Positions 3,067-54,733 of a stretch of DNA of 64,000 bases are shown here, in pieces. Where the stretch lies: positions 5,493 to 69,492 of the forward strand of contig JAQVMB010000003.1 in assembly GCA_028703835.1 (NCBI GenBank), given 5' to 3'. Source of the DNA: Candidatus Peribacteraceae bacterium (GTDB taxonomy: Bacteria > Patescibacteriota > Gracilibacteria > Peribacterales > Peribacteraceae). The translations under genes and the position numbers were made by a program. The notes beneath the pieces were generated by a model. It was not told where the DNA came from, searched no databases, and saw nothing but the letters and a program-made list of their open reading frames with translations. Position 1 is the stretch's first letter. Each line of letters begins with the position of its first letter.

Positions 3067-3170
3067 AGTAAAAAGGGGGAAGACGGACGTTGTCACCCTA
3101 TCCTACGTGCGTGGACCTCATTCGTTACACGGTTTGGTGTTGACGAAAGAATCGGGCATTGAGTATCGCG

Positions 3171-15501: not shown

Positions 15502-16419
15502 ATGCGGTACAGTCATGTCATGCGCGTATGCTTCGTCCTGTGCCCGGTCTTCATGGCTGCACTCAGCCTTCCCGTCTTTGCATTTGCCTCCGGCAGCGGC
15601 TCTCTCGCCGTGACGGCCCGGCCTTCGCAGGCGCTGGTTTCCATTCCGCAGGGCGCGCAACGCGTGCGCATGCTCTCGCTTCGGCTTCAGGCATCCTGTG
15701 ACGCCGATGTCCAGGTCACTTCCCTGATGATGCGGCATGCGGGTCTCGGCGCCGTGACGGACATCCTGCGCATCTACATGCTGAACGGCGATCGTCGCAT
15801 TTCTTCCGCCGTGTCGGTGCCGGCGCGGGAGGACCGTGAGCTTCGTCTGCGCAGATTCACGGTACCTGCATGCGGTTCGGCGGAGGTGACGCTCGCAGCG
15901 GACTTCGCTTCGACGGCACAGTCCGGCGCGGAACACCGTTTCTCGCTTGCGGCCGTGAACGCAGACGCATCGGTGACGATCGGAGCGGACGGACAGGACC
16001 CGTTGTCCACGCTTCAGGTATCACCCCATACGAAGCAGGCTTCCGTGCGCGTGACGTTTCGCGATGTGCTGACGAGCCTGTATTACGGTTCCAACAGGAC
16101 CGTTGCCCGTCTGCTCCTCACGGGTATCGGCTCCGACCAACGCATCCGGTCGATCACGTTCACGAACGAAGGATCGGCGCGGGATGCGGATCTGCGCAAC
16201 CTTTTTCTGGAGACTGCGTCCGGCATTCGTCTTTCCGAAACGGTACCGCATATGGACGATCGCAGAGTGACGGTGATGCTGGATCCCGGTTTGGAACTGC
16301 GCCGCAACGAAGCGAAACTGCTGCATTTGAAAGCGGACATCCGGGCGGGACGGTCGCACACGATCGATTGGGCCATCGAAGAGCCGTCGGACATCATGGC
16401 GGAGGAGGTTAGTCGGTAA
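15502..16419 (+). CDS. hypothetical secreted protein
   Basis: Internal ATG of ORF 15397..16419. Signal peptide MRVCFVLCPVFMAALSLPVFAFA. The remainder is rich in beta-strand-like sequence. Confidence 0.55.
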   Translation: MRYSHVMRVCFVLCPVFMAALSLPVFAFASGSGSLAVTARPSQALVSIPQGAQRVRMLSLRLQASCDADVQVTSLMMRHAGLGAVTDILRIYMLNGDRRISSAVSVPAREDRELRLRRFTVPACGSAEVTLAADFASTAQSGAEHRFSLAAVNADASVTIGADGQDPLSTLQVSPHTKQASVRVTFRDVLTSLYYGSNRTVARLLLTGIGSDQRIRSITFTNEGSARDADLRNLFLETASGIRLSETVPHMDDRRVTVMLDPGLELRRNEAKLLHLKADIRAGRSHTIDWAIEEPSDIMAEEVSR

Positions 16420-16428
16420 TGCGACCTC

Positions 16429-16521
16429 GGCCCGCACGTCAAAGACGTGCTCTCGATTTGCGAAGAAGACGAATGGTCAAATGTTTCAATCACGAGAGCG
16501 GGTCTTCGACCCGCGGGCAAA
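16429..16521. repeat. REP doublet (two inverted palindromic units), left of RAYT
   Basis: ggcccgcacgtcAaagacgtgctctcg (16429-16455) and gagagcggGtcttcgaCccgcgggcaaa (16494-16521). Each unit is a hairpin, and the two are approximate reverse complements. Confidence 0.75.
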
Positions 16522-16558
16522 TACCCCAGAATTTCAATCAGGGGTATAGTAGTTCCTT

Positions 16559-16993
16559 ATGTCACAGCGGCATTTCATCCAAAACGACGAGATGATGTTG
16601 GTGACCACAATCACTTTCCGACGCCAGAAGTTCTTCTTGAATCCTGCACTGGCACGTGAAGCCATTGACCAACTCTATCGATTACAGCAGATCATTCCAT
16701 TTTTCCTGTTTGGTTTTGTCATTATGCCGAACCATTGTCATTTTCTCATTAATGTTCCGGCACCTGCGAGAATATCAAGCGTCATGCGGTCATTTAAAAT
16801 GGGATTGTCTTTTCAGACAGGCATTTCACCGCTCTGGCAACCGCGCTTCGATATTCGATGTGTGAAAAATGGTGGTGAGGCATTGCACTACATCCATTCG
16901 AATCCCGTCAAAGAACAACTTGTGAAAGACGCGAGGGATTATCCATGGTCCTCTGCAACCGGAACATGGGATGTGACACCATTAGGATTGTGA
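16559..16993 (+). CDS. REP-associated tyrosine transposase (RAYT; IS200/IS605 Y1 family)
   Basis: 144 aa. HUH motif in MPNHCHFLI and catalytic Tyr region ALHYIHSNPVKEQLV. GC is clearly lower than the surroundings. Confidence 0.8.
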   Translation: MSQRHFIQNDEMMLVTTITFRRQKFFLNPALAREAIDQLYRLQQIIPFFLFGFVIMPNHCHFLINVPAPARISSVMRSFKMGLSFQTGISPLWQPRFDIRCVKNGGEALHYIHSNPVKEQLVKDARDYPWSSATGTWDVTPLGL

Positions 16994-16995
16994 CC

Positions 16996-17102
16996 TTTTG
17001 CCCGCACGTCGAAGACGTGCTCTCGGTATAGGGGGTGCGAAGTCAGGGTGGGAAAGCGCCTCTCTACCAAAGATGAGAGCGGATCTTCGATCCGCGGGCA
17101 AA
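16996..17102. repeat. REP doublet, right of RAYT
   Basis: ttttgcccgcacgtcGaagacgtgctctcg (16996-17025) and gagagcggAtcttcgaTccgcgggcaaa (17075-17102). Near-identical to the left doublet. Confidence 0.75.
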
Positions 17103-17112
17103 CACACATTGT

Positions 17113-19359
17113 TCAGATCAGCGGCTCCTCGAACGTCTCCGAGACCATCGCCACTTCTTCTTTGGAGGGAGGCGCCGACGCGGCTTCGTCCCACTTCGCC
17201 AGCATCTCTTCCACCTCTTTGCGCGGCGTGCAGTATTTGCGCCGTGACGCGTCGATGATCTCCTTCGTGTAATCTTCGGCGGGTGCCGGAGCGTTCAGTG
17301 TCTTGCCGGAGAACGCATCGCGCAATTCGCCATTCACCGACATCTTGATGTAGAAATCGCGGACGCCCAAGTTGATGATGTCGCGCTCCTTGAAGACCGG
17401 GTTGTATTCGCCTTCCAGGATCATCGCGTCTTCGGCTCCGACGCGGAAACTGATCATGGAACCCACGTTGCCGAAGACCGTCTTGCGAACAAAGTCGGAG
17501 AGCTGGCCCATGTACTGGTGGGCGATGGTGAGGTTGAGCTTGTACTTGCGCGCCTCCGACAAGATTTCCGAAAACGTGTCCGTGGCGAAGTTCTGGAATT
17601 CGTCGACGTAGAAGTAGAAGTCTTTGCGCTGGTCTTCCGCGGTGTCCGCGCGGCTCATGGCGGCCTGGTAGAGCTTCGTGATGAACATCGCGCCGATGAG
17701 CGATGAGTTCTCCTCGCCGAGCAATCCTTTGGATACTTTCATCAGGAGGATCTTCTTCTTGTCCATGATCTCGCGGATGTCGAACTTGGTCTTCGGCTGG
17801 CCGATCATGTTGCGGATCATGTTCGTCGCCACGAACTGACCGACTTTGTTGAGGAGCGGCGTGATGGCGTCGGCGTCGAACTTTTCGGACCATGCGGCGA
17901 ATTCCGACACCCAGAAGTTTTTCACCACGGAGTCCTGGATGCGCGACACGATCTTCTGGCGGTAGTTCTTGTCCGTGAGCATCTTGAGGATGGACAGGAC
18001 CGTCGTGTTCGGGCTGTCGAGGAGGGCGAGCGTGGTGTAGCGCAGCACGTGTTCCAAACGGTCGGACCAGTTGTTGCCGAAAAGCTTTTTGAAGATCTGC
18101 AGGAAACCGATCGTCACTTGCATCTTGTACGCCTCCTCCACGCGCTCGAGCGGGTTGAAGGCGATGGGGAAGTCGATGTCGCCGGGATCCAGGAGCACGA
18201 CGTCTTCGATGCGGTGTTTCGGCACCATGCGCAGGACGGCGTCGACCAGGTCGCCGTGCGGGTCCAAGACGGAGATGCCTTCGCCGTTCTTCAGGTCTTC
18301 GTTGATGAGGAGCTCCAGCAGCTTGCTCTTCCCCACGCCGGACTTGCCGACGATGTAGAGGTGACGCCGGCGGTCGGCGCGGCGGATGCCGAAGGGGACG
18401 AAGTTGTTGTGGTAGTTCGTCACGCCGAAGCCGCTCACGTCGCTTTCTCCGATCTTGGGCAAGTCCTGCGGCGGGTCGGACTTGCGCGCGAGGACGTGGA
18501 CGATGTGCGGGACGTAATCCGCGTTCGGGAAGTGGAAGAGCGTGGCGACTTCCTTCGCGTTGAGGATACGCAGCGTCGCGTGGGACCGTTCGCGGTATTT
18601 CCGCAGGAACGAGGCGGCGTTCTTCACGGGTACGCCGTGGAACCCGTTGATATCCTTGTCGTTGAATTGCGAGAAACTGTCCGTGACGGCGTTGAGTTTC
18701 AGGCGGGCTGCCTCCTCGTTATCGCTGATGTACGCGCAGCGGATGCTGACGCGGTACGGCTTGATCTCCGCCTTGTCTTTTGCTTTCGCATGTCGAACTT
18801 CGCCGATCCCTTTGCGTCCTCCTTCGCGCAGGCGGTCGCGGATGCTGAAGAAGTGGCGGATGTGCGCCAGCCGGATGCGGATGCGGCGGGCGAGATGGAA
18901 GAAGCCCGTGTCATCGCAAGGTTCCGCGATGATCTGCACCCACACCTGGTCGCTCGGCCCGATCTTGGAGATGACGGAGAAGAGGCGCGACGCGCTGTCC
19001 TCCTCGAAGACGTCGAAGGTCTTGATGGGGTAGATGTCCGAATGCTTCAGTTCCACGTTGGCGCAGGCGATCGACTGTTTCTTGGGATCAAAGCGCGTCG
19101 TGTAATCGTCCGTCTCGCGGATTTCGGCGTCCGGGAACGTCGCGTAAATCAAGCTCTCCACCGTCGAGAACAACTGCTGGTCGACGACCATGAAGAAATA
19201 CGTGTACTGCGCGAAGCCGAAGAACTCCAGCGACACGCGCTTCCCCGTGAACGTGTTGCGCATGTTGATCAGAAGCTCCTGGAACTTGGATTCCAGCTTC
19301 TTGTTCCCTTCCGTGCCCTGGGGAATGACGATGTGGAGATAGCGGAGCGTACCGGCCAT
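17113..19359 (-). CDS. TraD/TraG/VirD4-like (FtsK/HerA-superfamily) ATPase with uncharacterised N-terminal domain, no TM helices
   Basis: ORF 17113..19362, read from the ATG at 19359. Contains Walker A GKSGVGKS, Walker B-like FYFYVDEFQNF, and ARKYKLNLTIAHQYMGQL. The N-terminal ~330 aa are not recognised. Confidence 0.75.
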   Translation of the reverse strand: MAGTLRYLHIVIPQGTEGNKKLESKFQELLINMRNTFTGKRVSLEFFGFAQYTYFFMVVDQQLFSTVESLIYATFPDAEIRETDDYTTRFDPKKQSIACANVELKHSDIYPIKTFDVFEEDSASRLFSVISKIGPSDQVWVQIIAEPCDDTGFFHLARRIRIRLAHIRHFFSIRDRLREGGRKGIGEVRHAKAKDKAEIKPYRVSIRCAYISDNEEAARLKLNAVTDSFSQFNDKDINGFHGVPVKNAASFLRKYRERSHATLRILNAKEVATLFHFPNADYVPHIVHVLARKSDPPQDLPKIGESDVSGFGVTNYHNNFVPFGIRRADRRRHLYIVGKSGVGKSKLLELLINEDLKNGEGISVLDPHGDLVDAVLRMVPKHRIEDVVLLDPGDIDFPIAFNPLERVEEAYKMQVTIGFLQIFKKLFGNNWSDRLEHVLRYTTLALLDSPNTTVLSILKMLTDKNYRQKIVSRIQDSVVKNFWVSEFAAWSEKFDADAITPLLNKVGQFVATNMIRNMIGQPKTKFDIREIMDKKKILLMKVSKGLLGEENSSLIGAMFITKLYQAAMSRADTAEDQRKDFYFYVDEFQNFATDTFSEILSEARKYKLNLTIAHQYMGQLSDFVRKTVFGNVGSMISFRVGAEDAMILEGEYNPVFKERDIINLGVRDFYIKMSVNGELRDAFSGKTLNAPAPAEDYTKEIIDASRRKYCTPRKEVEEMLAKWDEAASAPPSKEEVAMVSETFEEPLI

Positions 19360-19454
19360 CAAAGGAGGAGAATACGAATATTATAGCAGAAAATGAGCTT
19401 TTACTGAAGGATGAAGCGTTCTGCCAAAGGGGAATGGTAGCGGTAAAACGAGCA

Positions 19455-21131
19455 CTAATACACCATTTTCAGATAGCAGGATTCACAGTAGACGATCTCC
19501 GGTCTTTCCGGGGCGTAGTTCGTGCTGATGGCCGCGTTGCACCGGGCGCAGTTCCTCTGCCAGAGTTTCCGTGGATTTCGCAGTGCCATGCGGTCAGCAT
19601 GCCGTTGGTCGGGGCATCGGCGCGGGACGGGGAGGCCCATCGTGCGGTAGAACTTCAATTCCTGCGGGATGATCTTGAACGGTCTGCCTGTGGACTCGCA
19701 GATCAGGATCCGGTCGCAGATGTCGTCGGGAACGTCCCTGATTGCGGCGGGGACCGGGACGGGCGGCCCTTTGTATGATTCCTTCTTTTCCTGCGGTTCG
19801 TTGTACCAGTTCCATCCCTGCTTCTTCGCTTCTTCCTCCGTGAGCGGGAAATTCTCCTGCGCCAGCGTCTCGTTGTAGCCCATGTAAGAAAGATGCGGTT
19901 GCAGGTAATCGCCCCACTCGCCGGTCTTGCGCATGTGTTCAATGATGCGCGGCACGAGCGCTTCATACTCTTCCTTCGTGTACTGCTTGTTCAGGATGCA
20001 GTACTTCTTGCGTCGCATGCTGATGCAGCCGAAGACATTCTGGCAATGGTGAATTTCGCGGCTGTAGTAGTTGTCGCTACCGTACCAGCAGAGGAACGTA
20101 CCCATCGTTCGCTGTCCGCCGACGGTCGATCCCACATTGAAGCTGAACTCGATGCCGTCAGGTGCCGTGTAGTTTCCGTCCTGGCTGTACTTGCTCTTCG
20201 GCGAGTTCCACAGGTACGTGCAATCCTCGCATGCGGTGCAGTCAAACGTGTACTTGCAGTTCTTGCTGTTGAAGACCATGTCTCCCGTACAGTCCTCGCT
20301 GCCCAGGGTATGCGCTGCACGATGGGGGAGCGGCTTCTTCAACTCTTCGAACTTCTCACGCAGGAGGCGCATCTTTTCGGGCGTGAAGGGGCGCAGTTCT
20401 GCCAGACGCTTCTCATATTCTTCTTTGCTGAGAGGTTTGTTCAGGAAGCAGTATTCCTTGTTCTGCAGGCCGAAGCACAGAAAGCAGTTCTTGCACGACT
20501 GGCAATCTTCCACCATGAGGCAGTCGGTACAGTTGCGGCAGTTCATGAAGTGGAAGCATTGATAGCACTGTTGCGACGCGATGCCCTCGTAGCACCACTC
20601 GCAGGAGTAGAGCGACAGGCCGTCCACGACATCTTTGGAATCGATCACGAAGCGACCGTAGAGGCAGTTCTCGGCATTGGTGATGCCGGCGACGAGGTAG
20701 CAGTCGCGGCAGTTGAGGGAGTGGTTGGTGTAGTAGCTGTTCTGTTCGTTGGTGGTGAAGAGCGACTGGTGCGGGACCGCCAAACCCAGTGCGGCGAATT
20801 GTTCCGAGAAAGTCTCGTTGAAGTCGAAGGGGCGACCGTACGACAGCTCGTCCCACCTGTCGCTCCAGAACTCCTCCTGGTCGTAGACCTTGTACGGTTT
20901 GTCCGGAGCGTAGATGGAAACGATCTGCTTGCCGGAGAGATCGGATTTCCGGTGGTAGAGGTTCAGGTCGTTGCGGAAGGCAAGACGTCGGCGAAAGCGG
21001 CAGTCCGGGCAGAATACCGGCGGTGGGATCTGCTCCTTCTTGCCGTTGAAGACAGGGGAGACCGTGTCGTAAAACACGAGGTCATTCGGAGTGATCTCAA
21101 AGGCAGCCGAGCATTGTTTGCAGGTGGCCAT
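19455..21131 (-). CDS. Cys-rich zinc-ribbon paralogue A (unnamed family)
   Basis: ORF 19455..21239. The internal ATG at 21131 (MATCKQCSAAFEITPNDLVFY...) aligns with its sisters and overlaps the upstream stop by 1 nt (TAATG). About 35 Cys by hand count. Ends ...NCARCNAAISTNYAPERPEIVYCESCYLKMVY. Confidence 0.85.
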   Translation of the reverse strand: MATCKQCSAAFEITPNDLVFYDTVSPVFNGKKEQIPPPVFCPDCRFRRRLAFRNDLNLYHRKSDLSGKQIVSIYAPDKPYKVYDQEEFWSDRWDELSYGRPFDFNETFSEQFAALGLAVPHQSLFTTNEQNSYYTNHSLNCRDCYLVAGITNAENCLYGRFVIDSKDVVDGLSLYSCEWCYEGIASQQCYQCFHFMNCRNCTDCLMVEDCQSCKNCFLCFGLQNKEYCFLNKPLSKEEYEKRLAELRPFTPEKMRLLREKFEELKKPLPHRAAHTLGSEDCTGDMVFNSKNCKYTFDCTACEDCTYLWNSPKSKYSQDGNYTAPDGIEFSFNVGSTVGGQRTMGTFLCWYGSDNYYSREIHHCQNVFGCISMRRKKYCILNKQYTKEEYEALVPRIIEHMRKTGEWGDYLQPHLSYMGYNETLAQENFPLTEEEAKKQGWNWYNEPQEKKESYKGPPVPVPAAIRDVPDDICDRILICESTGRPFKIIPQELKFYRTMGLPVPRRCPDQRHADRMALRNPRKLWQRNCARCNAAISTNYAPERPEIVYCESCYLKMVY

Positions 21132-22819
21132 TAGTAGACGGAAGCGAGGTAACACTCTTCGCAGTAGACGATCTCGGAACGGTCGGGAGCGTAGGTTGTC
21201 CGCATCTCTTTGCTGCAGTTCATGCACGGACGAAGCCACAGCTGGCGGGGATTGCGGAGGGCAAGCCGCAGGTCGTAACGCACGTCAGGATGGAGGCGAG
21301 GAACGGGTAATCGCTGCTTCCTATAGAAGTCCAGTTCCTGCTTCGTCACTTTGAACGGACGCTTTGTTATGTCGCATTCGATGGCCCAGTTCGTTATGTC
21401 ATCGGGAATGTCATCGATGAAGTCGGGCAGGCGGGAAGCCGGGATGGTTTTCGCTACCTGCAATTGCTTCTCCTCGCTATCACGCCAATAAAAGCCCCGA
21501 GTGAGAGCTTCCTCTTTCGTCAGCGGCAGGTATTCCCCCGCGAGTGATTCGTTGTAACCGAAGGCGGAGAGTGCCGGCGGGAAGAATTTTCCCCATTCTT
21601 CCGTTCTCTTCATCTTCTCGATGATCTTGGGCACGAGCGACTCATACTCGCTCTTTGAATACTGTTTGTTCAGGATGCAGTACTGCTTGTGGCGCAGCGC
21701 GACGCAGCCGAAGCAGTCATGACAGTTGAAGCAGTATTCGCAATAGAGAAGGTTCTGGCTGTGGAAGACGTATAGACAGTAGGCCGTGCTGTAGGTCTCG
21801 ATCGTTCCGAGCGTTTCGTACGCAAGCTCTGGTTTGACGTACATGTTCGAGCAGTCGTAGTTGTCCTTTACCCCAACGCCCACGGTCACGTAGCGGCTGT
21901 CCTGGCTGTCGTTCACGTCGTAGCAGTCCAAACAACGTTGCGAATTCTCGATGTAATCACCGCTGCACACCTCGCTGTTCACGATGTTCGAGCCGCGATG
22001 GATGGTTGTCTGCCGCAAGGCAGCGAGTTTCCGCTTCAGCTCTTCCGACCGCGCATGGAACCCGCGCACTTCCCGGACTTTCCTCTCGTATTCTTCTCTC
22101 GGCAGGGGCTTGTTTTCAAAGTGATATTCCTTCTGCCGCAAGTTGCTGCAGAGGAAGCAGTTGCTGCATCCTACGAGGTTGAGGGACCAGGAACAGTCGC
22201 GGCAATTCTTGCTGAACGAGACGTGGTTGCAGTTATAGGAGTCATACACCGAGAAGCATTCGTAGCAGAGCTCGGAGTTGTAGAGGTAGGAGCAATCCAC
22301 CGAGCTCTTGCAGCTTTGGTAGAGCTTTCCATAGTAACAATCCTCGCAGTACTCCGAGGAGTTGATGAGGTAACAGTTTTTGCAGTAGGCGGTCCCTGCT
22401 GAAAAATCTGAATTCTCATTCTGCAGAATCATCATGCCGAGGCGCGGCGCATCTTTATGGAGAGCGGCAAACTGCGGGAAGAAAGGTTTGCCGAAGTCGT
22501 ACGGCCGTCCCAGTTCCGTGTTATCGAGCTTGTCGTCATAGAACTCATCGGAGGTGTAGACCTTGTCGGGCTTTCCCCACAGGGGAATCTCATGGAACGT
22601 CGAAACCATGTCTTTGCCCGAGAGCGTGGAAGAACGTTTATAGAAGCTGCGCTCGTTGCGGTGACAGGTGCGGATCCGCAGCCGACACTCCGGACAGAAG
22701 ACTGGCAGTGGCGGATGAATGGCTTGTTCCCCGAACGTAAACGTCATCTTCTGAACGAATGTTTCTTCGTCAGGAGCAATGGCGAACGGCGCCTGACAAC
22801 GAAGACACGTCTTCTGCAT
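21131..22819 (-). CDS. Cys-rich zinc-ribbon paralogue B
   Basis: 562 aa. Starts MQKTCLRCQAPFAIAPDEE... and ends ...CMNCSKEMRTTYAPDRSEIVYCEECYLASVY. Its start is 4 nt downstream of the stop of C. Confidence 0.85.
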   Translation of the reverse strand: MQKTCLRCQAPFAIAPDEETFVQKMTFTFGEQAIHPPLPVFCPECRLRIRTCHRNERSFYKRSSTLSGKDMVSTFHEIPLWGKPDKVYTSDEFYDDKLDNTELGRPYDFGKPFFPQFAALHKDAPRLGMMILQNENSDFSAGTAYCKNCYLINSSEYCEDCYYGKLYQSCKSSVDCSYLYNSELCYECFSVYDSYNCNHVSFSKNCRDCSWSLNLVGCSNCFLCSNLRQKEYHFENKPLPREEYERKVREVRGFHARSEELKRKLAALRQTTIHRGSNIVNSEVCSGDYIENSQRCLDCYDVNDSQDSRYVTVGVGVKDNYDCSNMYVKPELAYETLGTIETYSTAYCLYVFHSQNLLYCEYCFNCHDCFGCVALRHKQYCILNKQYSKSEYESLVPKIIEKMKRTEEWGKFFPPALSAFGYNESLAGEYLPLTKEEALTRGFYWRDSEEKQLQVAKTIPASRLPDFIDDIPDDITNWAIECDITKRPFKVTKQELDFYRKQRLPVPRLHPDVRYDLRLALRNPRQLWLRPCMNCSKEMRTTYAPDRSEIVYCEECYLASVY

Positions 22820-22823
22820 ACGT

Positions 22824-24503
22824 TCAATATACTTCCTTCAGATAGCATTCTTCGCAATAGACCTTTTCCGGCCGTTCGGGGGCGTAGGTCGTCTGCATCT
22901 CCTTTCCGCAATGCATGCACTTCCTTCCCCAAAGCGTGCGGGGATTGCGCCGGAGCATCCTCCGACGGTGTCGTTCGTCGGGATGGAAATGAGGAAGGGG
23001 GAATCCGCGTTCTCGGTAGAACTCCAGTTCCTTCTTCACGATTCTGAACGGGCGGTTTGTTGCTTCGCACTTGATTGCCCACTGGAGAATGTCGTCAGGT
23101 ACCTGCGTGATATCCGTCGGCAGCGTCGAGGCTGCGATGATTTTCTTCACGTCCGGCAATTCCGTTTCTTCCTCGCGCCACGGCCAGCCGCGGCTCTTCG
23201 ACTCCATTTCCGTAAGCGGGAAATACTGCTGCGCCGTCGTTTCGTTGTAGGCGAACGGTGAGATTCCTGCAGGAAAGAATTCTCCCCATTCTTGCGTTGA
23301 TCGCATGTGTTCGATCACTGTCGGTACGAGCGATTCATACTCTTCCTTCGTGTATTGCTTGTTCAGGATGCAGTGCTTCCCGGGCTTCATGGAGACGCAA
23401 CCGCACATGTGTGATCCAGACTGGACGATGTCGCAGTAGAGCAGGTGCTTGCTGCCCCAGGAGCCGTGCGTAAAGATGGCGTTGTAAGAGCCGTAGCCGA
23501 GGCTGAGCGATTCGTACCCTAGCTGGGCGTCCGTGGTGTGGCAGACATCCAATAGGTCTTTGATCTGAAAGCCGGTGAAAATGTTTGCACAGTCTTCGCC
23601 GTACGAAACGTCGAAGCAGTTCTGCAGGTTCCGCGAGTTCTTCAGGTAGTCGCCCGTCACGTTCTCGCAGCTCACTACTTCGCGCGCCCGATGGATGCTC
23701 TGCTCTTTGAAGCGGGAGAATTCTTGCCGCATCTTCGGCAGCCCGCCCTTTGCCATTTCTTGAAGCAGCGCGCGCTTCTCTTTCGCGTACTCTGCGGGAG
23801 TGAACGGCTTGTTGCGGATGTGGAAGCGTTTGTTGCGAAGATTGACGGAGAAGAGGCAGTCTGCGCAGCCTTTGCAGTCGAAGAGGAACATGCTGTCCGA
23901 GCAGTTGGTGCAGTTTTGGGAGAACGACACGGTGTGGCACTTGTCGACGTCGGTCACTTCGAAGCAGTACTGCGACTCCGTGCAGTCTCCGGCGTCGATG
24001 CAGCCCGTCGACTTGATGACCTGGTAGCCGTAGAGGCAGTCTTCGTTGAACTCCGCGGCGAAGAGCAGGTAGCAGTTCTTGTTGGAGCCGGAGAGATTGA
24101 TGAATTCCGAGTTCTCGTTATTCACCACGTTGAGCGCGAGGCGCGGAACGACGTTCTGCAGCTCATTGATCTGCGGGAAGAACGGACGGTTGAAATCGAC
24201 ATTCCGCCCGAAGCTGCGCGGGTCCCACTTGTCCGACCACCAGCACTCCGTGCAGTAGACGGGGAATGCGCTCTTCGTCGGGTAGACGGAGATGATGGAC
24301 TTCTTGCACGCGTCACAGGTGCGGCGGTACAGCGTCCGCTCGTTACGCCAGAAGAGCCTTCGCTGCTGACGGCAGTCGGGGCAGAGCGTGGGCGCAGGGA
24401 TCTCGAAGCGCTTGCCGCCGAACTCGGGCGCCATCTTGGCACGGAGCTCTTCTTCGAGCGGAGTGACGGTGAAGGCCGAGGAGCATTGCTTGCAGGTTGG
24501 CAT
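22824..24503 (-). CDS. Cys-rich zinc-ribbon paralogue C
   Basis: ORF 22824..24602, read from the internal ATG at 24503 (MPTCKQCSSAFTVTPLEE...). Ends ...CMHCGKEMQTTYAPERPEKVYCEECYLKEVY. Confidence 0.85.
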   Translation of the reverse strand: MPTCKQCSSAFTVTPLEEELRAKMAPEFGGKRFEIPAPTLCPDCRQQRRLFWRNERTLYRRTCDACKKSIISVYPTKSAFPVYCTECWWSDKWDPRSFGRNVDFNRPFFPQINELQNVVPRLALNVVNNENSEFINLSGSNKNCYLLFAAEFNEDCLYGYQVIKSTGCIDAGDCTESQYCFEVTDVDKCHTVSFSQNCTNCSDSMFLFDCKGCADCLFSVNLRNKRFHIRNKPFTPAEYAKEKRALLQEMAKGGLPKMRQEFSRFKEQSIHRAREVVSCENVTGDYLKNSRNLQNCFDVSYGEDCANIFTGFQIKDLLDVCHTTDAQLGYESLSLGYGSYNAIFTHGSWGSKHLLYCDIVQSGSHMCGCVSMKPGKHCILNKQYTKEEYESLVPTVIEHMRSTQEWGEFFPAGISPFAYNETTAQQYFPLTEMESKSRGWPWREEETELPDVKKIIAASTLPTDITQVPDDILQWAIKCEATNRPFRIVKKELEFYRERGFPLPHFHPDERHRRRMLRRNPRTLWGRKCMHCGKEMQTTYAPERPEKVYCEECYLKEVY

Positions 24504-24617
24504 CCAGCCCACTGTACGGCCGGATATGCCGTCATACAATTGTCGCATGAGGGTTTCCGATTTTGCCCTGGCAGAAGAGCCGTTCGTGAACCCGATATTC
24601 ACGCGCCACTGTGAAGA

Positions 24618-25406
24618 TCACGCCCCCACGCCCTGCTTCCACATCGATTCGAACTGGTTGCGATAGAGTTCGATAAGTTCCGGTTGCCGGATGACGATGA
24701 CGCGCGGGTTCGTGTCGTCACAGATGAAGTGGCTGACGTGGGCGTCGGCGAAGGCGAGGTAATCGTCCGTCACGGGGATGTCATCGACGAGGCGGCTTGT
24801 GCGCAGTTCACGTGAATCCCTCTTTGCGAATGTTTCCGCTTCGGGCGTGCGGGGATTGAAGATGCGGCAGTAGATGCCGCGGTCCAGACGCTTGCGGCGG
24901 AACGCCAATTCTTCGGGCGCCTCGTCGGACAGACCCGCCACTCGCCAGTAGTTCGCCATGTTTCCGAGATGCAGGTACTCGTCGGTGCAGCAATCGGGCA
25001 GCTTCAGATATTCCTCCCGGAACGCTTCCACCCCTTCCCGGATCTCCACGGGTTCCGCTTCGTCGATCTTCGCTTCGTTGTCCAGGTACGGAAGCAGCGA
25101 GTCCAGACCGGCCAAGGCCAGCCGGAGCTTTCGCATCTTCCGCTGGTCTGCGTCCAGCTTCGTGATGATGGCGCGGAGCGTGAGGGGCGAGAAGACCGAT
25201 TGCTTCCGGTTCAGCTTCATCGGGGAAACGAGTCCGCGATCCTGAAGTCTCTTCATGGTGCGATAGGCCGTCATCACGTTGAGGCCGCTCGCGGCGATCA
25301 GTTCCGTCATCGATGCACGGCGCAGCTTCAGCAGCTGCAGGTACAGCGCAATTTCCTCCTCGCGGAGTCCCGCCAGCCGAAGAAGATCCTGGATGCGGCT
25401 ACGCAT
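24618..25406 (-). CDS. TrmB-family winged-helix transcriptional regulator
   Basis: 262 aa. The N-terminal LGLREEEIALYLQLLKLRRASMTELIAASGLNVMTAYRTMKRLQDRGLV fits a TrmB-type wHTH. It is embedded between paralogues D and C on the same strand. Confidence 0.7.
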   Translation of the reverse strand: MRSRIQDLLRLAGLREEEIALYLQLLKLRRASMTELIAASGLNVMTAYRTMKRLQDRGLVSPMKLNRKQSVFSPLTLRAIITKLDADQRKMRKLRLALAGLDSLLPYLDNEAKIDEAEPVEIREGVEAFREEYLKLPDCCTDEYLHLGNMANYWRVAGLSDEAPEELAFRRKRLDRGIYCRIFNPRTPEAETFAKRDSRELRTSRLVDDIPVTDDYLAFADAHVSHFICDDTNPRVIVIRQPELIELYRNQFESMWKQGVGA

Positions 25407-25433
25407 GGAAGAGGCAGTATAGCTCAGTTGGCT

Positions 25434-27122
25434 TCAATACACCTCTTTGAGATAGCATTCTTCGCAATACACGATTTCCGGCCGCTCCGGAGCATACGTC
25501 GTCCTCATCTCCTTCCCGCATTTCATGCAGGAGCGGATCCAGAGTTTGCGGGGGTTGCGCAGCGCCATGCGTCGTTTATGTCGCTCGTCAGGATGGAAAT
25601 GCGGAATCGGAAGCCGCATCTTCCGGTAGAACTCCAGCTCTTGCTTGATGACCTTGAAGAGGCGCCCCGAGACCGGGCAGCGGATCGCCGCGTGCAGGAT
25701 GTCATCCATGACGTCGTTGATACGGTCGGGAAGATTCTTCGCGTCCAGCGTTCGCGTCGCTTGCGGCGGCTCTTCCGCTTCCTCCCGCCACGACCATCCG
25801 CGCTTACGAGCTTCTTCTTTGGTGACCGGGAAGTACTCGGGCTCGTTCGCCACCGATTCGTTGTAAGCGTACGGAGAGGCGTCGACGGGGAAGAACTCGC
25901 CCCATTCGCCCGTCTTCCGCATGTGTTCGATGATCTTCGGTACGAGCGTTTCGTATTCTTCCCTCGTGTACCGCTTGTTGAGGATGCAGTACTTTCCGTT
26001 CCTGATGCCCACGCAGCCGAAACAATCGGATGAAGTGATGGCCAAGTCGCAATAGAGGAGATCATGGTTCACCGTGCTGTAGCTCCCGTGCGTGAAGAGG
26101 ACGTTCCTGCCGGTGATCGTGAGGCCTTCGTACGCAAGTTCCTGGAATGCGCCGTGGTCGACATCCATCGACGAGACCACTTGCTCGTCGAGACGGGTGC
26201 AGTGCTTCAAGTCCTGGCATTTGTCGCCGTCGAAGCAGGAGTGGCAACGGAGAGAGTGTTGGAGGTAGTCGCCGGTGCAATCTTCGCATTGGATGTTGTG
26301 TGAAGCCCGTCGCAGGGCTTGCGGGAGAAGGTTCTTGAACGTTTCACGATGTTTCTCGAATGCGGCATGCGAACCGGACAGGATATCCGCGACCGTACGC
26401 TCAAATGCTTCCTTGCCGACTTCTTCATTGAAGATGCAGTACTTTTTCCCGCGAAGATTGCTGCAGAACGCGATGTTCTGGCATTGCTGGCAGTCGATGC
26501 TGAAGAATGCGTCGGAGCAGTTCTTACAGTCCACGAGAGAGACGCAGTGATAGCAGAGAGTGGAGTCGAGGAGGTCATAGCTGCGCTCCGCGTCGCGGGA
26601 GAAGGCGCAGTCGGAGGAATCTTTCGAATGGTACGTGGCGTGACAGTACAGGTCGTTCTCATTGAATCCGCCGTCGATGCACATGTAGCAATTCTTGGAC
26701 TGCCAGACTTGGTTCACGTAGGGGCAGTTTTCATTGTTGATGACCGCGAGCGACAGGCGCGGGACGTTGTTCCGCAGTTCCCGGAATTGATCGAAGAAGG
26801 GCCGGTAGAAGTCGAACGGACGGCCGTAGGAGAACGGGTCCCACGCATCCGTGTACCACGCCTCCGTCTCGAAGACGGGAAAGGGCTTCTCCGGGGCGTA
26901 GGTCGAGATGATGGGTTTGTTCGTCAGGCCGCACTGTCGACGGTACAGGTTCCGTTCATTGCGAAATGACAGGCGACGTTGCGAGCGGCAATCCGGACAC
27001 AGCGTCGGAGGCGGGATCAACTTTTTCTTTCCGCTGAAGACGGGCGATACTTTCTCGTAGAACACGAGATCGTCGGGAGTGATGTCGAAGGAAGCCCGGC
27101 ATTGGCGACACGTTCTATGCAT
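25434..27122 (-). CDS. Cys-rich zinc-ribbon paralogue D
   Basis: ORF 25434..27221, read from the internal ATG at 27122 (MHRTCRQCRASFDITPDDLVFYEKVSPVF...). Ends ...CMKCGKEMRTTYAPERPEIVYCEECYLKEVY. Confidence 0.85.
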   Translation of the reverse strand: MHRTCRQCRASFDITPDDLVFYEKVSPVFSGKKKLIPPPTLCPDCRSQRRLSFRNERNLYRRQCGLTNKPIISTYAPEKPFPVFETEAWYTDAWDPFSYGRPFDFYRPFFDQFRELRNNVPRLSLAVINNENCPYVNQVWQSKNCYMCIDGGFNENDLYCHATYHSKDSSDCAFSRDAERSYDLLDSTLCYHCVSLVDCKNCSDAFFSIDCQQCQNIAFCSNLRGKKYCIFNEEVGKEAFERTVADILSGSHAAFEKHRETFKNLLPQALRRASHNIQCEDCTGDYLQHSLRCHSCFDGDKCQDLKHCTRLDEQVVSSMDVDHGAFQELAYEGLTITGRNVLFTHGSYSTVNHDLLYCDLAITSSDCFGCVGIRNGKYCILNKRYTREEYETLVPKIIEHMRKTGEWGEFFPVDASPYAYNESVANEPEYFPVTKEEARKRGWSWREEAEEPPQATRTLDAKNLPDRINDVMDDILHAAIRCPVSGRLFKVIKQELEFYRKMRLPIPHFHPDERHKRRMALRNPRKLWIRSCMKCGKEMRTTYAPERPEIVYCEECYLKEVY

Positions 27123-27229
27123 GGATGGAACGTTGGGAAGTGTTTGCAGATGCGGAAAATGCCGGATGCAAGTGAATATTCTCCCCATCCGCTGTCTGCT
27201 GCTTACTGTCGCCGCTATCATGACCGTCC

Positions 27230-27490
27230 ATGGCGAAGAAGCCCGCCCCCATCACGCTCCGTACCGTCCTGCGGCACATGCAGGAGATGAAGCAGGACCT
27301 CCTGCAGCATATGCAGGGGATGAAACGGGAACTTGTGACGAAGGTGGACGCCGTGGAGATGCGTTTGACGGAGCGTATCGACCGCGTCGAACGGAATCTG
27401 ACGATGCAGATCGACGGATTGGACAAGCGCCTCGATGACATCGAAGTGTTCCAACTCCCGAAGCTGAAGAAAGCGGTCGGCATGCGTTAA
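27230..27490 (+). CDS. small coiled-coil protein
   Basis: 86 aa. Heptad-rich MQEMKQDLLQHMQGMKRELVTKVDAVEMRLTERIDRVERNLTMQIDGLDKRLDDIE. Divergent from D. Its stop overlaps the stop of E (TTAA). Confidence 0.55.
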   Translation: MAKKPAPITLRTVLRHMQEMKQDLLQHMQGMKRELVTKVDAVEMRLTERIDRVERNLTMQIDGLDKRLDDIEVFQLPKLKKAVGMR

Positions 27491-29136
27491 TAGACTTCTT
27501 TAAGGTAGCACTCCTCGCACAGGGTCCTCCCGTCATATTCCTGGGGCCAGCTCGTCTGCGTCTCCTTCTTGCACTTGCCGCAGGCGACCGTCCGCAGTTC
27601 GCCGTTGAACGGAATGAGGCGGAAGTTTTCCTGCAGGCGGCGCATGTAATAGGTGTGCGGTAACGGCGCGCAAAGGTCTTTCGCGAACGCGATGTCCACG
27701 TCCGCGATCTGGAACGGCCGCTTTGCGACAGGATCCCAGAACACTTTCTTGGACAGATCCGTACCGGCATCATCGCTCCGGTCGGGGACCTGTGATGCGT
27801 CGATGGCGTCGGATATCCGTTCCGGCTTCTCCGTGCTCATGCGGAACCCGCGCTTCGTTCCTTCTTCCCGCGTGAGCGGCCAGTAGAAACCGGCAAGGCT
27901 TTCTTCATAGGGATTCGCCGCGAAGTGTCCGGGAAAGAATTGTCCGTACTCTCCGGTTCTCTTCATCGCCGCGATGATGTCCGCTTTGCGTTTCTCATAC
28001 TCCTCCGGTGTGTACGGTTTGTTGAAAATGTGATATTTCTTCCCGACCAACCCGCAGCAGCCGAAGCAGTGCTGGCACTGGAAGCAGTGTGCACTGTATT
28101 CCATTTCTTTGGATTGGACGACAAGATAGGAAAAGCGAACATTATAACACTTATCGAGTGCCGAAGAGCTGAAAAATACTAATTCATCTTCGTAAAAATT
28201 CGTATTGTCTAAACAATCTTTGGAATGAACACCTCCCCGGAAGCAGTTTATGCAATCCTCGGCTCCAGTCGATGTAAAATAACAATTTACGCAATTTCTG
28301 CATTCCTCGAGGTAGTTGCCAGTCGAATCTTCCGACTGGTCGAGCATTTGTGATCGATGCCAAGCGTTTGTCCGCAGCATATTACGGAAAGATATGTGAG
28401 TGGCTTCATAGATTTTCCACGACCGCAGATTTAGTTCACGAAGCTTCTGCAAATATTCCTCCTTCGAAAATTGGCGGTTGCCAATGCAATATTGCTTGTT
28501 TCGCAAATTGCAACATAGAACGCAATTGCTGCAATTTCGGCAATCATAGAGAAATGCGCTGTCGCTGCATTGCCAGCAGTTGAGTGCAAAAATAGTCTGA
28601 AAGCAGAAGTGACTGAAAGTGATATCAATACAACGCTGCGAGTCGAAGGAAAAAACTGCATATTGGGAATCCTTCACGCGTAAAACACGAAAACAATAAC
28701 GTACATCTTCGTCCTCCACTCCCGAATGACTTAAATAGCAATTCTTTGAGTACCACCAATCATCGGTGTATTCACAGTTTTCGTTTCCAGCGCCTAAATT
28801 ATGTGCGATGGGAGAATTTTGAAAAATCTCCCACATTTGAGGGAACAGCGGCTTCGTCAGATCCGCGTCCGCGGACGGAGGATTCGCATTCTTGATCCAC
28901 TCGTCCTTGTGCCACACGGGATACGGGCAGTCCTCGGAAAACACGGAGATGATCTGCTTGCCGGTCTTGTCGCACTTTCGTTTATGCAGCGTCCAATGCT
29001 GCCAAAATGCTCCAACGATTTGCCAGCGGACAATGGGGTGGAGGTCCGGCTCGCCGTCGATGCCGAGTTTCTTCCGCAAAGCTGTCTCCTGTTCACTGAC
29101 CGTGAACGTCCTGCCGGTGACGCGGCAAACGGGCAT
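27487..29136 (-). CDS. Cys-rich paralogue E (divergent; N-terminal zinc ligands lost; low-GC core)
   Basis: ORF 27487..29142, read from the ATG at 29136 (MPVCRVTGRTFTVSEQE...). Shares KYHIFNKPYTPEEYEKRKADIIAAMKRTGEYGQFFP and ...CGKCKKETQTSWPQEYDGRTLCEECYLKEVY with its sisters. Confidence 0.8.
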   Translation of the reverse strand: MPVCRVTGRTFTVSEQETALRKKLGIDGEPDLHPIVRWQIVGAFWQHWTLHKRKCDKTGKQIISVFSEDCPYPVWHKDEWIKNANPPSADADLTKPLFPQMWEIFQNSPIAHNLGAGNENCEYTDDWWYSKNCYLSHSGVEDEDVRYCFRVLRVKDSQYAVFSFDSQRCIDITFSHFCFQTIFALNCWQCSDSAFLYDCRNCSNCVLCCNLRNKQYCIGNRQFSKEEYLQKLRELNLRSWKIYEATHISFRNMLRTNAWHRSQMLDQSEDSTGNYLEECRNCVNCYFTSTGAEDCINCFRGGVHSKDCLDNTNFYEDELVFFSSSALDKCYNVRFSYLVVQSKEMEYSAHCFQCQHCFGCCGLVGKKYHIFNKPYTPEEYEKRKADIIAAMKRTGEYGQFFPGHFAANPYEESLAGFYWPLTREEGTKRGFRMSTEKPERISDAIDASQVPDRSDDAGTDLSKKVFWDPVAKRPFQIADVDIAFAKDLCAPLPHTYYMRRLQENFRLIPFNGELRTVACGKCKKETQTSWPQEYDGRTLCEECYLKEVY

Positions 29137-29172
29137 GGCCACAAGTGTACCAAACTTACCTTTCGTTCACTA

Positions 29173-29733
29173 TCATCCGCGCAGTTGCCACTCTTTCACC
29201 GCCGTGAGCGGATAGAGCAGCATGAGAATATTCAGGGTCAGGTTATCGCGGAAAAACCAAAGCATCAGCAGTTCCACGGCAATCACGAGAAGAACGGAAA
29301 CCCAGCGGGGAAGTTTCCATGCCAGGTAATAGCCGAACGCCGCGGCGAGCATGTCGCCGGTGGAGTTGAGGATGCTGTCGCCTTCATACCCGAGGGCGGC
29401 CGTCTGCGTGCGGTACCGGTCGATGACGAAGGGGGTGTTCTCCAGGATCTCCCATCCCGCCTCGAGCACGAGCGCGATGAGCAAGCGTTGGCGGACGGGG
29501 AGGCGGCGCAGGAGGAGCCAGAGCAGTGCGAAGAAGAGAAAGCCGTGCAGCAGGTGGGAAAAGGTGTACGGGTCCGCAAGGAGCTGTGATGTGCACGGGC
29601 TTGCGATATCCGTCGTCCATAGCCCGAAGCCGCCGGCACACCACGGGATCCTCCCCATGAGAGCCAGGATGACGCCGGACACGACCATGATCGCAGCCGC
29701 CCCCGCGCCGATGATGAGCGTGGAACGCTTCAT
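29173..29733 (-). CDS. DUF2585/UPF0314-family membrane protein
   Basis: DPYTFSHLLHGFLFFALLW...EAGWEILENTPFVIDRYR...GDSILNS...FRDNLTLNILMLLYPLTAVKEWQ matches the UPF0314 pattern as remembered. Confidence 0.7.
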   Translation of the reverse strand: MKRSTLIIGAGAAAIMVVSGVILALMGRIPWCAGGFGLWTTDIASPCTSQLLADPYTFSHLLHGFLFFALLWLLLRRLPVRQRLLIALVLEAGWEILENTPFVIDRYRTQTAALGYEGDSILNSTGDMLAAAFGYYLAWKLPRWVSVLLVIAVELLMLWFFRDNLTLNILMLLYPLTAVKEWQLRG

Positions 29734-30368
29734 TCGCTCTCAGGTGCCGCGCAGAGCGGCGGGGGAGGGGAGGAGAAAGGGGTTCCGTAGTGCACGGTGA
29801 GGTAGTACTTGTCCTTCTCCGGACTCAGCCCCAATCCGACGCCGATGGATGTGAAATGCGCATTCACGATGCTGTTGTAGTGGGCGCGGGAAGCTTTGTT
29901 CCGTTCCGCAAGATAGAAGCGGAACGTTTTGCGGATGGCGTCGATGGCCGCAAGCGTGCAGTCATTGTCCTTGCAGGCGTAGGTTCCCCAGCCGATGTTC
30001 TCCGTGAACGTGATGCGCTCGATGTTCTTGAAGTGGAGCCCGCGGTTGGCGAACCACTGCTCGATGGCGGGATAGTCGTAGTACGCCGCATCTGCCGCCC
30101 GCTTATGGTCGATGAAACCACGCTGCACGGCATAGATCGACCAGTTCGTTGCGGAGGCATTGAGGTGCCCGTCGAGCGCGTACGGTTGCAGCTTGAGGCG
30201 CCGGCGCAGGCGGTTATTCCAGCCCAGCCAAGTCTTGCGCACCCGTTCCATATCGATGCTCGGCCCGTTCGTCGCGGATGTCGTCAAACAGAGCGGTTCT
30301 TCGGCCTTCGCGACCGGGATGGCGAGCAGGCAAAAGACGAACAATGTCCGGATGGATAGGGAAGTCAT
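29730..30368 (-). CDS. secreted CAP/SCP (PR-1-like) domain protein
   Basis: Has a signal peptide. ...RAHYNSIVNAHFTSIGVGLG...YYLTVHYG is typical of the CAP domain. ATGA overlap with the downstream gene. Confidence 0.65.
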   Translation of the reverse strand: MTSLSIRTLFVFCLLAIPVAKAEEPLCLTTSATNGPSIDMERVRKTWLGWNNRLRRRLKLQPYALDGHLNASATNWSIYAVQRGFIDHKRAADAAYYDYPAIEQWFANRGLHFKNIERITFTENIGWGTYACKDNDCTLAAIDAIRKTFRFYLAERNKASRAHYNSIVNAHFTSIGVGLGLSPEKDKYYLTVHYGTPFSSPPPPLCAAPESE

Positions 30369-30510: not shown

Positions 30511-30597
30511 GCCGATGTGGCGGAATTGGTAGACGCGCACGCTTCAGGAGCGTGTATCCGTAAGGATGTGAGAGTTCGAGTCTCTCCATCGGCACCA
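30511..30597 (+). tRNA. tRNA-Leu (anticodon CAG), CCA encoded
   Basis: GCCGATG acceptor stem pairs with CATCGGC. GGAATTGGTAGAC D-loop, anticodon loop cTTCAGGa, long variable arm, GTTCGAGTC T-loop. Confidence 0.9.
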
Positions 30598-54488: not shown

Positions 54489-54686
54489 ATGGTCATGGGG
54501 AAAGCGGGCGAACAGCTTTTCCCGTGATTATGGCATGTCCGATGTAAGAAGCCGCGAGAGCGCGCGTCTACATCATCAGTTTCTCATGTCACACGCGTTG
54601 CTCCGAAGGGCAAACACCATTCCATCTTTATTTCTTTCCTTCATACAAATCTATGTCTATACATAGAAAAAGGCCAAATACACGTT

Positions 54687-54703
54687 CCGTACGGACCGTA
54701 CGG
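54687..54703. promoter_or_regulatory. tandem 8-bp palindromes CCGTACGG-A-CCGTACGG in leader of repeat-protein gene
   Basis: Seen directly. Lies 31 nt upstream of the ATG at 54734. Function unknown. Confidence 0.2.
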
Positions 54704-54733
54704 CGATTGGGCCAGCGAAATCCGGACGCGTCG

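Follow-up and report, generated by a model that had tools for sequence, protein, structure and literature searches.

Five cysteine-rich paralogues of an undescribed family, with putative zinc modules at both ends, form an array beside a soluble VirD4/VirB4-type ATPase gene in Candidatus Peribacteraceae

An array of five large, cysteine-rich genes, here denoted A to E, is located at positions 19455-29136 of a 64,000-nucleotide (nt) stretch of a Candidatus Peribacteraceae genome (GenBank assembly GCA_028703835.1, contig JAQVMB010000003.1, positions 5,493 to 69,492 of the forward strand). This whole stretch is called the window, and coordinates refer to it. Several described proteins resemble the gene products in part. 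Small zinc proteins carrying the families zf_Tbcl and zf_Tbcl_2 have the same finger order and basic linker as both end modules of A-E, but lack the about 380 residues that the two modules flank here; our literature search found no paper on these two families themselves. The antifreeze protein of Tenebrio molitor (1EZG; PF02420) shares with A-E a repeat of 12 residues in which Cys (or Ser/Ala) stands at every third position. It is the only PDB sequence matched at an expect value (E) of 10 or below by a profile of the first repeat region of the family (E 5.7, not significant), and PF02420 has no match in A-E at E<=1. A-E differ from it in having no TxT ice-binding ladder (beside the core Cys stand N/D and Y/L/V instead of Thr), in Cys that are often unpaired across the coil, in the absence of a predicted signal peptide and in being multidomain proteins of 560 amino acids (aa). 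The apparent likeness is one of repeat period and residue pattern, and we do not claim homology. In A, B, C and E the repeat regions also match phrog_15341, a group of (CxxC)n phage proteins (best E 3.6e-7); these are small (about 140-280 aa), have neither the zinc end modules nor the core of A-E, and give non-significant BLAST matches (E 0.06-0.6). One such protein, gp169 of Campylobacter phage CPt10 (L084 1381-1806; 141 aa), has Cys at every third residue over about 80 residues and was annotated by its depositors with insect antifreeze repeats.

The ATPase encoded next to the array is like VirD4, TrwB, TraD and DotL, and like VirB4, in its P-loop and all-alpha domain, both above Pfam thresholds, and unlike type IV coupling proteins in having no N-terminal membrane anchor, with a DUF8128 domain in its place. 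It belongs to the "orphan" VirD4-like genes reported across Patescibacteria, where only 148 of 5,713 VirD4-like genes lie near virB4 and the authors raise exaptation (PMC12102498). Cysteine-rich proteins have been described from Peribacteria as well: these are secreted proteins of 580-3860 aa, mostly with signal peptides and with pappalysin-like or integrin-like annotations (PMC4736985), and A-E have the lineage, the high Cys content and the clustering of genes in common with them. Identity of A-E with that set was considered and rejected, Table S4 of Anantharaman et al. 2016 containing no protein of matching length and Cys count.

The five genes are as follows; residue numbers below are those of paralogue C.

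19455-21131, minus strand: paralogue A, 558 aa, 35 Cys, 14 CxxC motifs; its ATG start overlaps the stop codon of B
21131-22819, minus strand: paralogue B, 562 aa, 35 Cys; 4 nt downstream of C
22824-24503, minus strand: paralogue C, 559 aa, 32 Cys; reference for residue numbering
25434-27122, minus strand: paralogue D, 562 aa, 33 Cys
27487-29136, minus strand: paralogue E, 549 aa, 33 Cys; the most divergent copy (29-33% identity to A-D)

An initial annotation, made from the letters of the DNA, had described five co-directional minus-strand genes that are homologous over their whole length. All five open reading frames (ORFs) are located there, each with an ATG start and a stop codon, and they align end to end with pairwise identities of 29-47% (tblastn E 1e-50 to 1e-162). 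The Cys-dense, core and C-terminal motifs that it quoted are all found in the sequences, its count of about 35 Cys for paralogue A comes to exactly 35, and the gene junctions read as it gave them, with TAATG (1-nt overlap) between A and B and TGAACGTATG (4-nt gap) between B and C. Its view that A-E carry neither a transmembrane helix nor a signal peptide agrees with a hydropathy scan, in which no transmembrane segment or signal-like N-terminus was seen (maximal 19-residue Kyte-Doolittle mean 0.87-1.33); among 249 relatives, just 7 exceed 1.6. At the DNA level the best repeats between array copies are 60-79% identical over about 50-220 nt, and a 54-nt motif occurs twice per array gene, about 450 nt apart. 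Paralogue C is the only copy in the window with all four terminal zinc sites intact, and it matches PHW10_01275 at 100% identity; the latter comes from a metagenome-assembled genome of Candidatus Peribacteraceae, in the phylum Peregrinibacteriota.

The array is a local instance of an ancient, clade-wide, chromosomal family of the Peribacteria/Peregrinibacteria/Gracilibacteria/Abawacabacteria branch of the candidate phyla radiation (CPR), held at 5-10 or more diverged copies per genome of roughly 1 Mb. A word-indexed search with paralogue C returned more than 6,854 relatives, all annotated "hypothetical", and a HMMER search of 1.84 billion representatives gave 5,981 clusters (50% identity) at E<=1e-3, of which 2,493 reach E<=1e-30; nearly all have lengths of 540-580 aa. 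At least 597 matching stretches were detected among GTDB species representatives; the best 80 of these belong to Peribacteria, Peregrinibacteria, Gracilibacteria, Abawacabacteria or unclassified Patescibacteria, and the Gracilibacteria matches include a dolphin-mouth genome. The taxonomic restriction holds for these named matches, and among the weakest ones the family may also occur elsewhere. The source genome carries at least one family gene elsewhere, a sixth, PHW10_00185. The family is thus clade-restricted and multi-copy, as expected from the lineage-specific expansion that had been proposed.

Scans of A-E against Pfam, NCBIfam, PADLOC and PHROGs returned just sub-threshold zinc-finger matches at the termini and the weak phrog_15341 match, leaving the central ~350 residues without a Pfam or NCBIfam model. 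A full-length profile or structural match to a characterised family was looked for and none was found: a PDB sequence search with a 78-sequence profile gave just 30-residue LIM-like matches (E>=0.003), and Foldseek of an AlphaFold2 model of C found nothing below E 1 in the PDB (best 1.3, left-handed beta-helices) and nothing below E 0.03 in BFVD (best, a zinc-ribbon protein). Our literature search found no description of the family or of the operon type. The family, which the initial annotation could not name, is undescribed and in that sense categorically new; a new working principle is not claimed. Its terminal modules belong, as divergent members, to two Pfam families, and the ATPase is a member of a known superfamily in a new context.

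The same annotation had read the tandem amplification and strong divergence of the array as a sign of an accessory role. A recent, fast-diverging amplification is not supported: the paralogues are uniformly old, each has orthologues in other genomes, and the genes are under purifying selection. Paralogues within a locus have a median identity of 41.6% (5th-95th percentiles 34-49%), with one of 420 pairs reaching 70%. The closest orthologue in another genome is 67% identical for A, 58% for B, 74% for C, 63% for D and 72% for E, in each case above the identity to any sister copy; orthologues of E at 65-72% identity occur in four related loci (L085, L052, L004 and L066). Between C and its orthologue in L085 the nonsynonymous divergence (dN) is 0.19, with a ratio to synonymous divergence (dN/dS) of about 0.12; dN for the ATPase is 0.23, and C is thus as slow to change as its operon neighbour. 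Overall dN/dS is about 0.12-0.2 with saturated dS, and between paralogues the ratio was discarded as uninformative owing to the same saturation. Arrays hold five family genes here, at least eight in L085 and at least ten in L001, and the gene complement turns over between close relatives although single orthologues are conserved. The set looks like a stable, subfunctionalised complement of ancient paralogues. No full-length family relative was found by tblastn against 50,697 phage genomes, and no family homologue in an IMG/VR scan. PADLOC-DB 2.0 has no match for A-E at E<=0.01, and for the ATPase just generic mad8 and HerA P-loop matches.

All five proteins follow one plan. A double treble-clef zinc module comes first and a second double zinc module last; between them lie two homologous repeat regions, separated by a helical hairpin (residues 233-272), and then an alpha/beta core. 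In paralogue C these elements lie as follows.

24228-24503, minus strand: N-terminal double treble-clef module, residues 1-92 (hidden Markov model (HMM) matches, hhalign)
23808-24113, minus strand: repeat region (solenoid) 1, residues 131-232, about eight 12-residue coils
23349-23687, minus strand: repeat region (solenoid) 2, residues 273-385, homologous to region 1
23154-23348, minus strand: conserved core, residues 386-450, with 19 of 65 columns at least 80% conserved over 249 sequences
22827-23078, minus strand: C-terminal double treble-clef module, residues 476-559 (HMM, BLAST, hhalign)

In each end module an Arg-rich linker joins a zf_Tbcl-like finger to a CxxC-x17-CxxC finger. The two modules are homologous to each other (hhalign of residues 3-90 with 478-556: 99.8% probability, E 6.6e-28), so the earlier description of the proteins as zinc-ribbon-ended is right but incomplete, the N-terminus bearing the same module and both ends being a duplicated zf_Tbcl plus zf_Tbcl_2 pair. 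In the N-terminal module of C, site 1 is C4/C7/C41/C44 and site 2 is C63/C66/C84/C87, with the linker CPDCRxQRRLxxRNERxLYxRxC; in the C-terminal module, site 1 is degenerated (C479, H507, H512) and site 2 is invariant (C529, C532, C550, C553). The linker arginines R45, R48, R49, R53 and R61 and R511, R515, R519, R522 and R527 are at least 90% conserved, which is suggestive, and the end modules are net positive (+5 to +10 for the C-terminal module in A-D). Assignment to the Pfam families stays below threshold in the array itself: zf_Tbcl_2 (PF23477) scores 16.5-25.1 bits (cut-off 27), zf_Tbcl (PF13451) 16 bits in paralogue D only (cut-off 24) and TIGR04272 13.5-20.3 bits (cut-off 36), and E has no match to any of the three. 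Precomputed PF23477 or PF13451 matches are present on some orthologues, and the C-terminal module of A matches, at BLAST E 3e-6, a genuine member of 93 aa, whose scores for zf_Tbcl and zf_Tbcl_2 are 88.7 and 72 bits. The N-terminal module, described earlier as common to all five copies, is limited to A-D because E has lost zinc site 1 (C4 alone is left) along with most Arg-rich linker residues; E keeps the solenoids, the core and the C-terminal CxxC-x17-CxxC.

Over the 249 sequences, conservation is highest in the core and the last zinc finger and lowest in the helical hairpin, the linker at residues 451-475 and stretches of the repeat regions. The core has the consensus KEEYExLVPxIIEHMxxTGEWGEFFPxxxSPFxYNETxAQxYFPLTxEEAxxxGxxW. 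The AlphaFold2 model of C, built from the 78-sequence alignment, has a predicted local distance difference test score (pLDDT) of 84 and a predicted template modelling score (pTM) of 0.86; termini and core are above 90, and the consensus stretch lies at 90-97. The proposal that A-E are cytoplasmic multi-zinc proteins is upheld as probable.

The repeat regions carry a strict cysteine lattice. Region 1 terminates in NLRNKxYxIxNK and region 2 in FGCxGLxxKxYCILNKQY, each followed by a helix, and the two regions with their helices (residues 126-252 and 276-402) align by hhalign with 99.8% probability (E 9e-30). Counted over the 249 members, Cys-Cys spacings of 3, 6, 9 and 12 occur 3568, 1744, 2366 and 2420 times, versus 83 for spacing 2 and 139 for spacing 4. 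In region 1 of A-D all Cys (11-15 per protein) fall into a single mod-3 phase; family-wide this phase is 44% Cys and 18% Ser, and Tyr, Asp, Asn and Phe are abundant in the remaining two. The family median is 38 Cys per protein (6.8%), and only about 20 of the roughly 35 Cys positions show conservation family-wide. The every-third-residue positions probably face inward and form the core, and the pattern would be that of a narrow beta-helix in which each coil has four sides of three residues and small residues point to the interior; in the AlphaFold2 model DSSP assigns one bridge per 12 residues in region 2. Left-handed beta-helix hexapeptide acyltransferases were considered as a template and rejected (Foldseek E 1.3-10, template modelling (TM) score <=0.2; the period here is 12, not 18). 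A purely disulfide-based fold is disfavoured because many core Cys have no cross-coil partner of the kind that a Tenebrio-type disulfide requires; C144, for instance, faces Ala and C156 faces Val. The motif C210-x2-C213-x2-C216-x2-C219 forms a near-complete ring of core Cys (71-95% conserved), and the conserved cluster C198/C201/C210/C213/C216/C219 is a candidate metal site.

The array is linked to an ATPase gene downstream and holds a regulator gene within it.

17113-19362, minus strand: VirD4/VirB4-superfamily P-loop ATPase, soluble, 749 aa; 92 nt downstream of A
24618-25406, minus strand: TrmB-family winged-helix regulator, 262 aa; inside the array, directly upstream of C

That the array adjoins a TraD/VirD4-like ATPase gene, as first annotated, is borne out by Pfam matches to T4SS-DNA_transf (PF02534; 35.4 bits, cut-off 20.1), TrwB_AAD_bind (PF10412; 24.4 bits, cut-off 20.5) and TraG-D_C (22.1 bits). 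Its Walker A (GKSGVGKS) and Walker B (YFYVDEF) motifs are intact. The N-terminal domain, DUF8128 (PF26449; match precomputed for the identical protein P0271), is soluble and of alpha/beta type, and no transmembrane anchor was seen in the protein (maximal 19-residue hydropathy 1.01). Foldseek of its AlphaFold2 model matched TrwK/VirB4 (1e-10) and TrwB (3e-9; TM score 0.53 to target), as well as DotL and Cag-beta. The protein is 70-89% identical over 120 clusters and constant in length, and by this measure it appears to behave as a core gene. No VirB4, VirB6 or VirB8 channel gene and no relaxase gene was present among 20 window ORFs scanned (ten large and ten flanking), and none recurs in 82 related loci. 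The ATPase also matches phrog_5156 at E 2e-72, with distant relatives (22-25% identity) in the Bacillus phages SPO1 (gp27.4) and G (gp156); soluble VirD4-like ATPases therefore circulate in large phages too.

The genes lie on one strand in the order D-TrmB-C-B-A-ATPase, with gaps of 27, 114, 4, -1 and 92 nt, and D is probably the first gene of this transcription unit. The TrmB-like protein scores 35.3 bits on PF01978 (cut-off 25.6) over residues 12-66; a C-terminal sugar-binding effector domain was not found, there being no Pfam or NCBIfam match past residue 90. The pairing of a TrmB-like gene followed by C is kept in L001 and L085, where TrmB orthologues with 60% identity lie upstream of the C orthologue. 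Three different TrmB-like genes, one of them on the opposite strand, occur per array in L001/L002 and L085.

Array counts were taken by tblastn in 83 related loci and neighbour counts by ORF clustering in 82. At least two family genes are present in 62 of the 83 loci, with up to 10 in 21.7 kb. The sole recurrent neighbours are a TrmB-like gene (about 256 aa, 37/82) and the ATPase gene (about 747 aa, 22/82). By tblastn the ATPase lies within 10 kb in 24/83 loci, and in 12 of the 27 full-length loci. In 21 of 25 cases the ATPase gene and the nearest family gene share a strand, the ATPase gene usually lying directly downstream and at less than 200 nt. The linkage is seen in Peribacteria, Peregrinibacteria, Gracilibacteria and Abawacabacteria. 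The neighbourhood survey that had been suggested thus found co-occurrence with the ATPase and TrmB genes that is real and conserved across orders.

We tentatively read A-E as cytoplasmic multi-metal scaffolds, adaptors or cargo that work with the co-transcribed ATPase under TrmB-like control, a possibility in which our confidence is low. The proteins would stay in the cytoplasm and be made rigid by Zn(Cys)4 sites at their ends, and stacked CxxC knuckles in the repeat region would hold thiolate or metal clusters, for example at the six-cysteine cluster around C210. The conserved ends and core may provide a docking or nucleic-acid-binding function common to all paralogues, with the variable repeat surfaces, the helical hairpin and the linker giving paralogue-specific recognition. 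A-E could then be adaptors or cargo of a soluble hexameric ATPase of the VirD4/VirB4 type in a DNA or nucleoprotein transaction that belongs to the core of the lineage, with expression set by the TrmB-like repressors within the array. We consider it distinctly unlikely that the narrower proposal is also true, in which the repeat would be a 12-residue beta-helix whose core, lined with Cys thiolates, holds a string of metals, and the paralogues are dedicated clients of the orphan soluble motor.

Several observations weigh against the scaffold or adaptor reading. No homologue of known function was found for A-E, so that every step of the mechanism is one that we infer, and metal binding is read from Cys patterns only. 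The repeat regions, which would hold the metals, reach a pLDDT of only 63-74. Paralogue E is conserved despite the loss of most of its Arg-rich linker residues, and A-E are near-neutral overall (isoelectric point 6.1-7.4) with mildly acidic repeat regions, which is atypical for nucleic-acid binders. The ATPase is out of reach in 59/83 loci; this is weak evidence because many of those contigs are short. The family gene that adjoins the ATPase is not a single orthologous subtype (one fixed subtype was looked for across the loci and none was found), and the specific partner of the ATPase is not defined, since the adjoining gene varies in subtype.

Among the alternatives, the one that survives best makes A-E exported cargo of a type-IV-like route, with the C-terminal zinc module as the signal and the repeats as disulfide-braced rods at the cell surface or in a host cell. 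The operonic link to a coupling-protein-like ATPase and the highly conserved, positively charged C-terminus fit such a route; the nearest PDB sequence pattern, although not significant, is that of a secreted and fully disulfide-bonded antifreeze protein, and the non-core repeat positions, rich in Tyr, Asp and Asn, are like carbohydrate-binding faces. The source bacteria are probably episymbiotic, Peribacteria invest heavily in cysteine-rich surface proteins (PMC4736985), and genes of type IV secretion systems (T4SS) matter in other Patescibacteria (PMC12102498). The ATPase, however, has no membrane anchor, the scanned ORFs and the related loci hold no channel gene to serve it, and VirB6 is reported to be scarce or absent in Gracilibacteria (PMC12102498). 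The whole protein is conserved and slow-evolving, instead of combining a variable effector domain with a signal, and many core Cys do not have the cross-coil partners that disulfide-braced rods would need. Tightly folded zinc modules, moreover, translocate poorly through T4SS. We regard export as unlikely.

A second alternative takes A-E as metal or redox proteins, in which a string of zinc, Fe-S or Cu-thiolate sites serves storage and buffering, sulfur relay or electron transfer, and the ATPase link is incidental or concerns metallation. This would account for the cysteine content, its lattice and the near-complete C210-C219 ring, and Foldseek shows a weak likeness (E>0.03) to WhiB-type and zinc-ribbon phage proteins. 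On the other hand, little more than half of the Cys positions are conserved, and packing suits the core better than obligatory ligands do because core Cys positions are freely replaced by Ser, Leu, Val or Ala. No canonical Fe-S motif was found, and no Fe-S or metal-trafficking gene is a recurrent neighbour; the existence of 5-10 diverged paralogues, whose non-Cys surfaces are conserved, speaks for recognition. We think this quite unlikely to be the main function.

The paralogues could instead stack end to end into a cytoplasmic assembly or filament, in the manner of bactofilins, which the ATPase would assemble, remodel or move along. Beta-helices serve as polymerisation modules in bactofilins, the pTM suggests one rigid body per chain, the A/B overlap and the B/C gap suggest coupled, stoichiometric expression, and ancient paralogues have been kept together in arrays across orders. 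Yet complexes of fixed stoichiometry usually keep a fixed gene set, and here copy number, array order and the ATPase-adjoining gene all vary; in the model, helices and zinc modules cap both repeat regions and would block end-to-end stacking. A hetero-oligomer of this kind is, in our judgement, very unlikely.

The initial annotation had leaned towards an accessory role, possibly in conflict or host interaction; on such a reading the array would be a fast-evolving, recently amplified set for defence or host manipulation. A tandem multi-copy family limited to bacteria of episymbiotic type, weak PHROG matches of the repeat region and a strong one of the ATPase, a transposase element and a tRNA gene near the array ends, and a G+C content slightly below that of the flanks would suit such a role. 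It is nevertheless unsupported, because the paralogues are ancient, under purifying selection and absent from phage and defence libraries; the orthologues are conserved, the same arrangement occurs in at least four named lineages, and the flanks are housekeeping genes. We hold it to be highly improbable. An artefact, either assembly duplications or ORFs mis-called in high-G+C DNA, comes to mind with a metagenome-assembled source and with long spurious antisense ORFs in the window, but is refuted by the divergence of the copies (53-71% in protein and at least 21% even in their best DNA stretches, which are no more than 79% alike), by thousands of same-length homologues from independent assemblies and by the confident AlphaFold2 model, and its probability is negligible.

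Bacteria of the source type, with genomes of about 1 Mb, have lost most of their biosynthesis. Even so, roughly 1-1.5% of the lineage's coding capacity goes into a single unnamed 560-aa protein, present in 5-10 or more old copies, and the family belongs to the core biology of Peregrinibacteria/Gracilibacteria because these copies have been kept under purifying selection beside a highly conserved ATPase. It also marks a gap among protein families, with at least 5,981 clusters at 50% identity, a centre for which there is no Pfam model, and no PDB or BFVD relative, and a structural curiosity, in that a protein for which no signal peptide is predicted carries a Cys-rich lattice at every third residue. 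The conserved operon names candidate partners for the VirD4-like genes of Patescibacteria that lie far from any T4SS (PMC12102498). If the repeats do carry metal strings and act as motor clients, they would be the first defined partner of, and a non-conjugation function for, thousands of CPR "coupling protein" genes, and the repeat regions would be a new kind of metalloprotein element.

The surroundings of the operon contain three further features.

17079-17095, minus strand: terminator-like hairpin GCGGATC-GAA-GATCCGC with a T-rich tail, 18 nt past the ATPase stop codon
27230-27490, plus strand: heptad-rich, coiled-coil-like ORF of 86 aa in the gap between D and E, divergent from D
16559-16993, plus strand: transposase ORF of the IS200/Y1 type, like the tyrosine transposases associated with repetitive extragenic palindromes (REP; the transposases, RAYT); PF01797 (Y1_Tnp) 27.4 bits

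The hairpin is a possible operon end, its position alone being suggestive; a promoter and terminator scan of the region returned no more sites than chance. L004 and L052 each hold two relatives of the 86-aa ORF (45-54% identity), all of them antisense to family genes, and the ORF is probably a real small gene embedded in Peribacteraceae arrays because it is conserved inside the arrays of close relatives. The RAYT ORF is bracketed by a 26-nt element, GCCCGCACGTC(A/G)AAGACGTGCTCTCG, at 16430-16455 and 17000-17025, each copy of which holds a GCACGTC/GACGTGC palindrome. A REP/RAYT unit occupies 16430-17025, immediately downstream of the ATPase operon, at the place where such an element had been annotated.

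The flanks of the array encode GroEL, transketolase, 6PGD, pyruvate kinase, a Mur ligase and sigma-70; other genes there encode glucoamylase, a DUF2585 protein, a CAP-domain protein and O-antigen ligase. The G+C content is 0.53-0.59 over 16000-30000 and 0.60-0.65 in the flanks. The lower value could come from codon and amino-acid composition (Cys, Asn, Tyr, Lys) rather than from foreign origin, given the conservation of the array in relatives. A tRNA-Leu gene lies at 30511-30597, near the upstream end of the array. Three ORFs of the window are of envelope type: an 855-aa protein with SLH and beta-propeller domains at 529-3096 (minus strand), a 691-aa PKD-repeat protein at 36052-38127 (plus strand) and a 1123-aa ORF with no Pfam match at 54653-58024 (plus strand).

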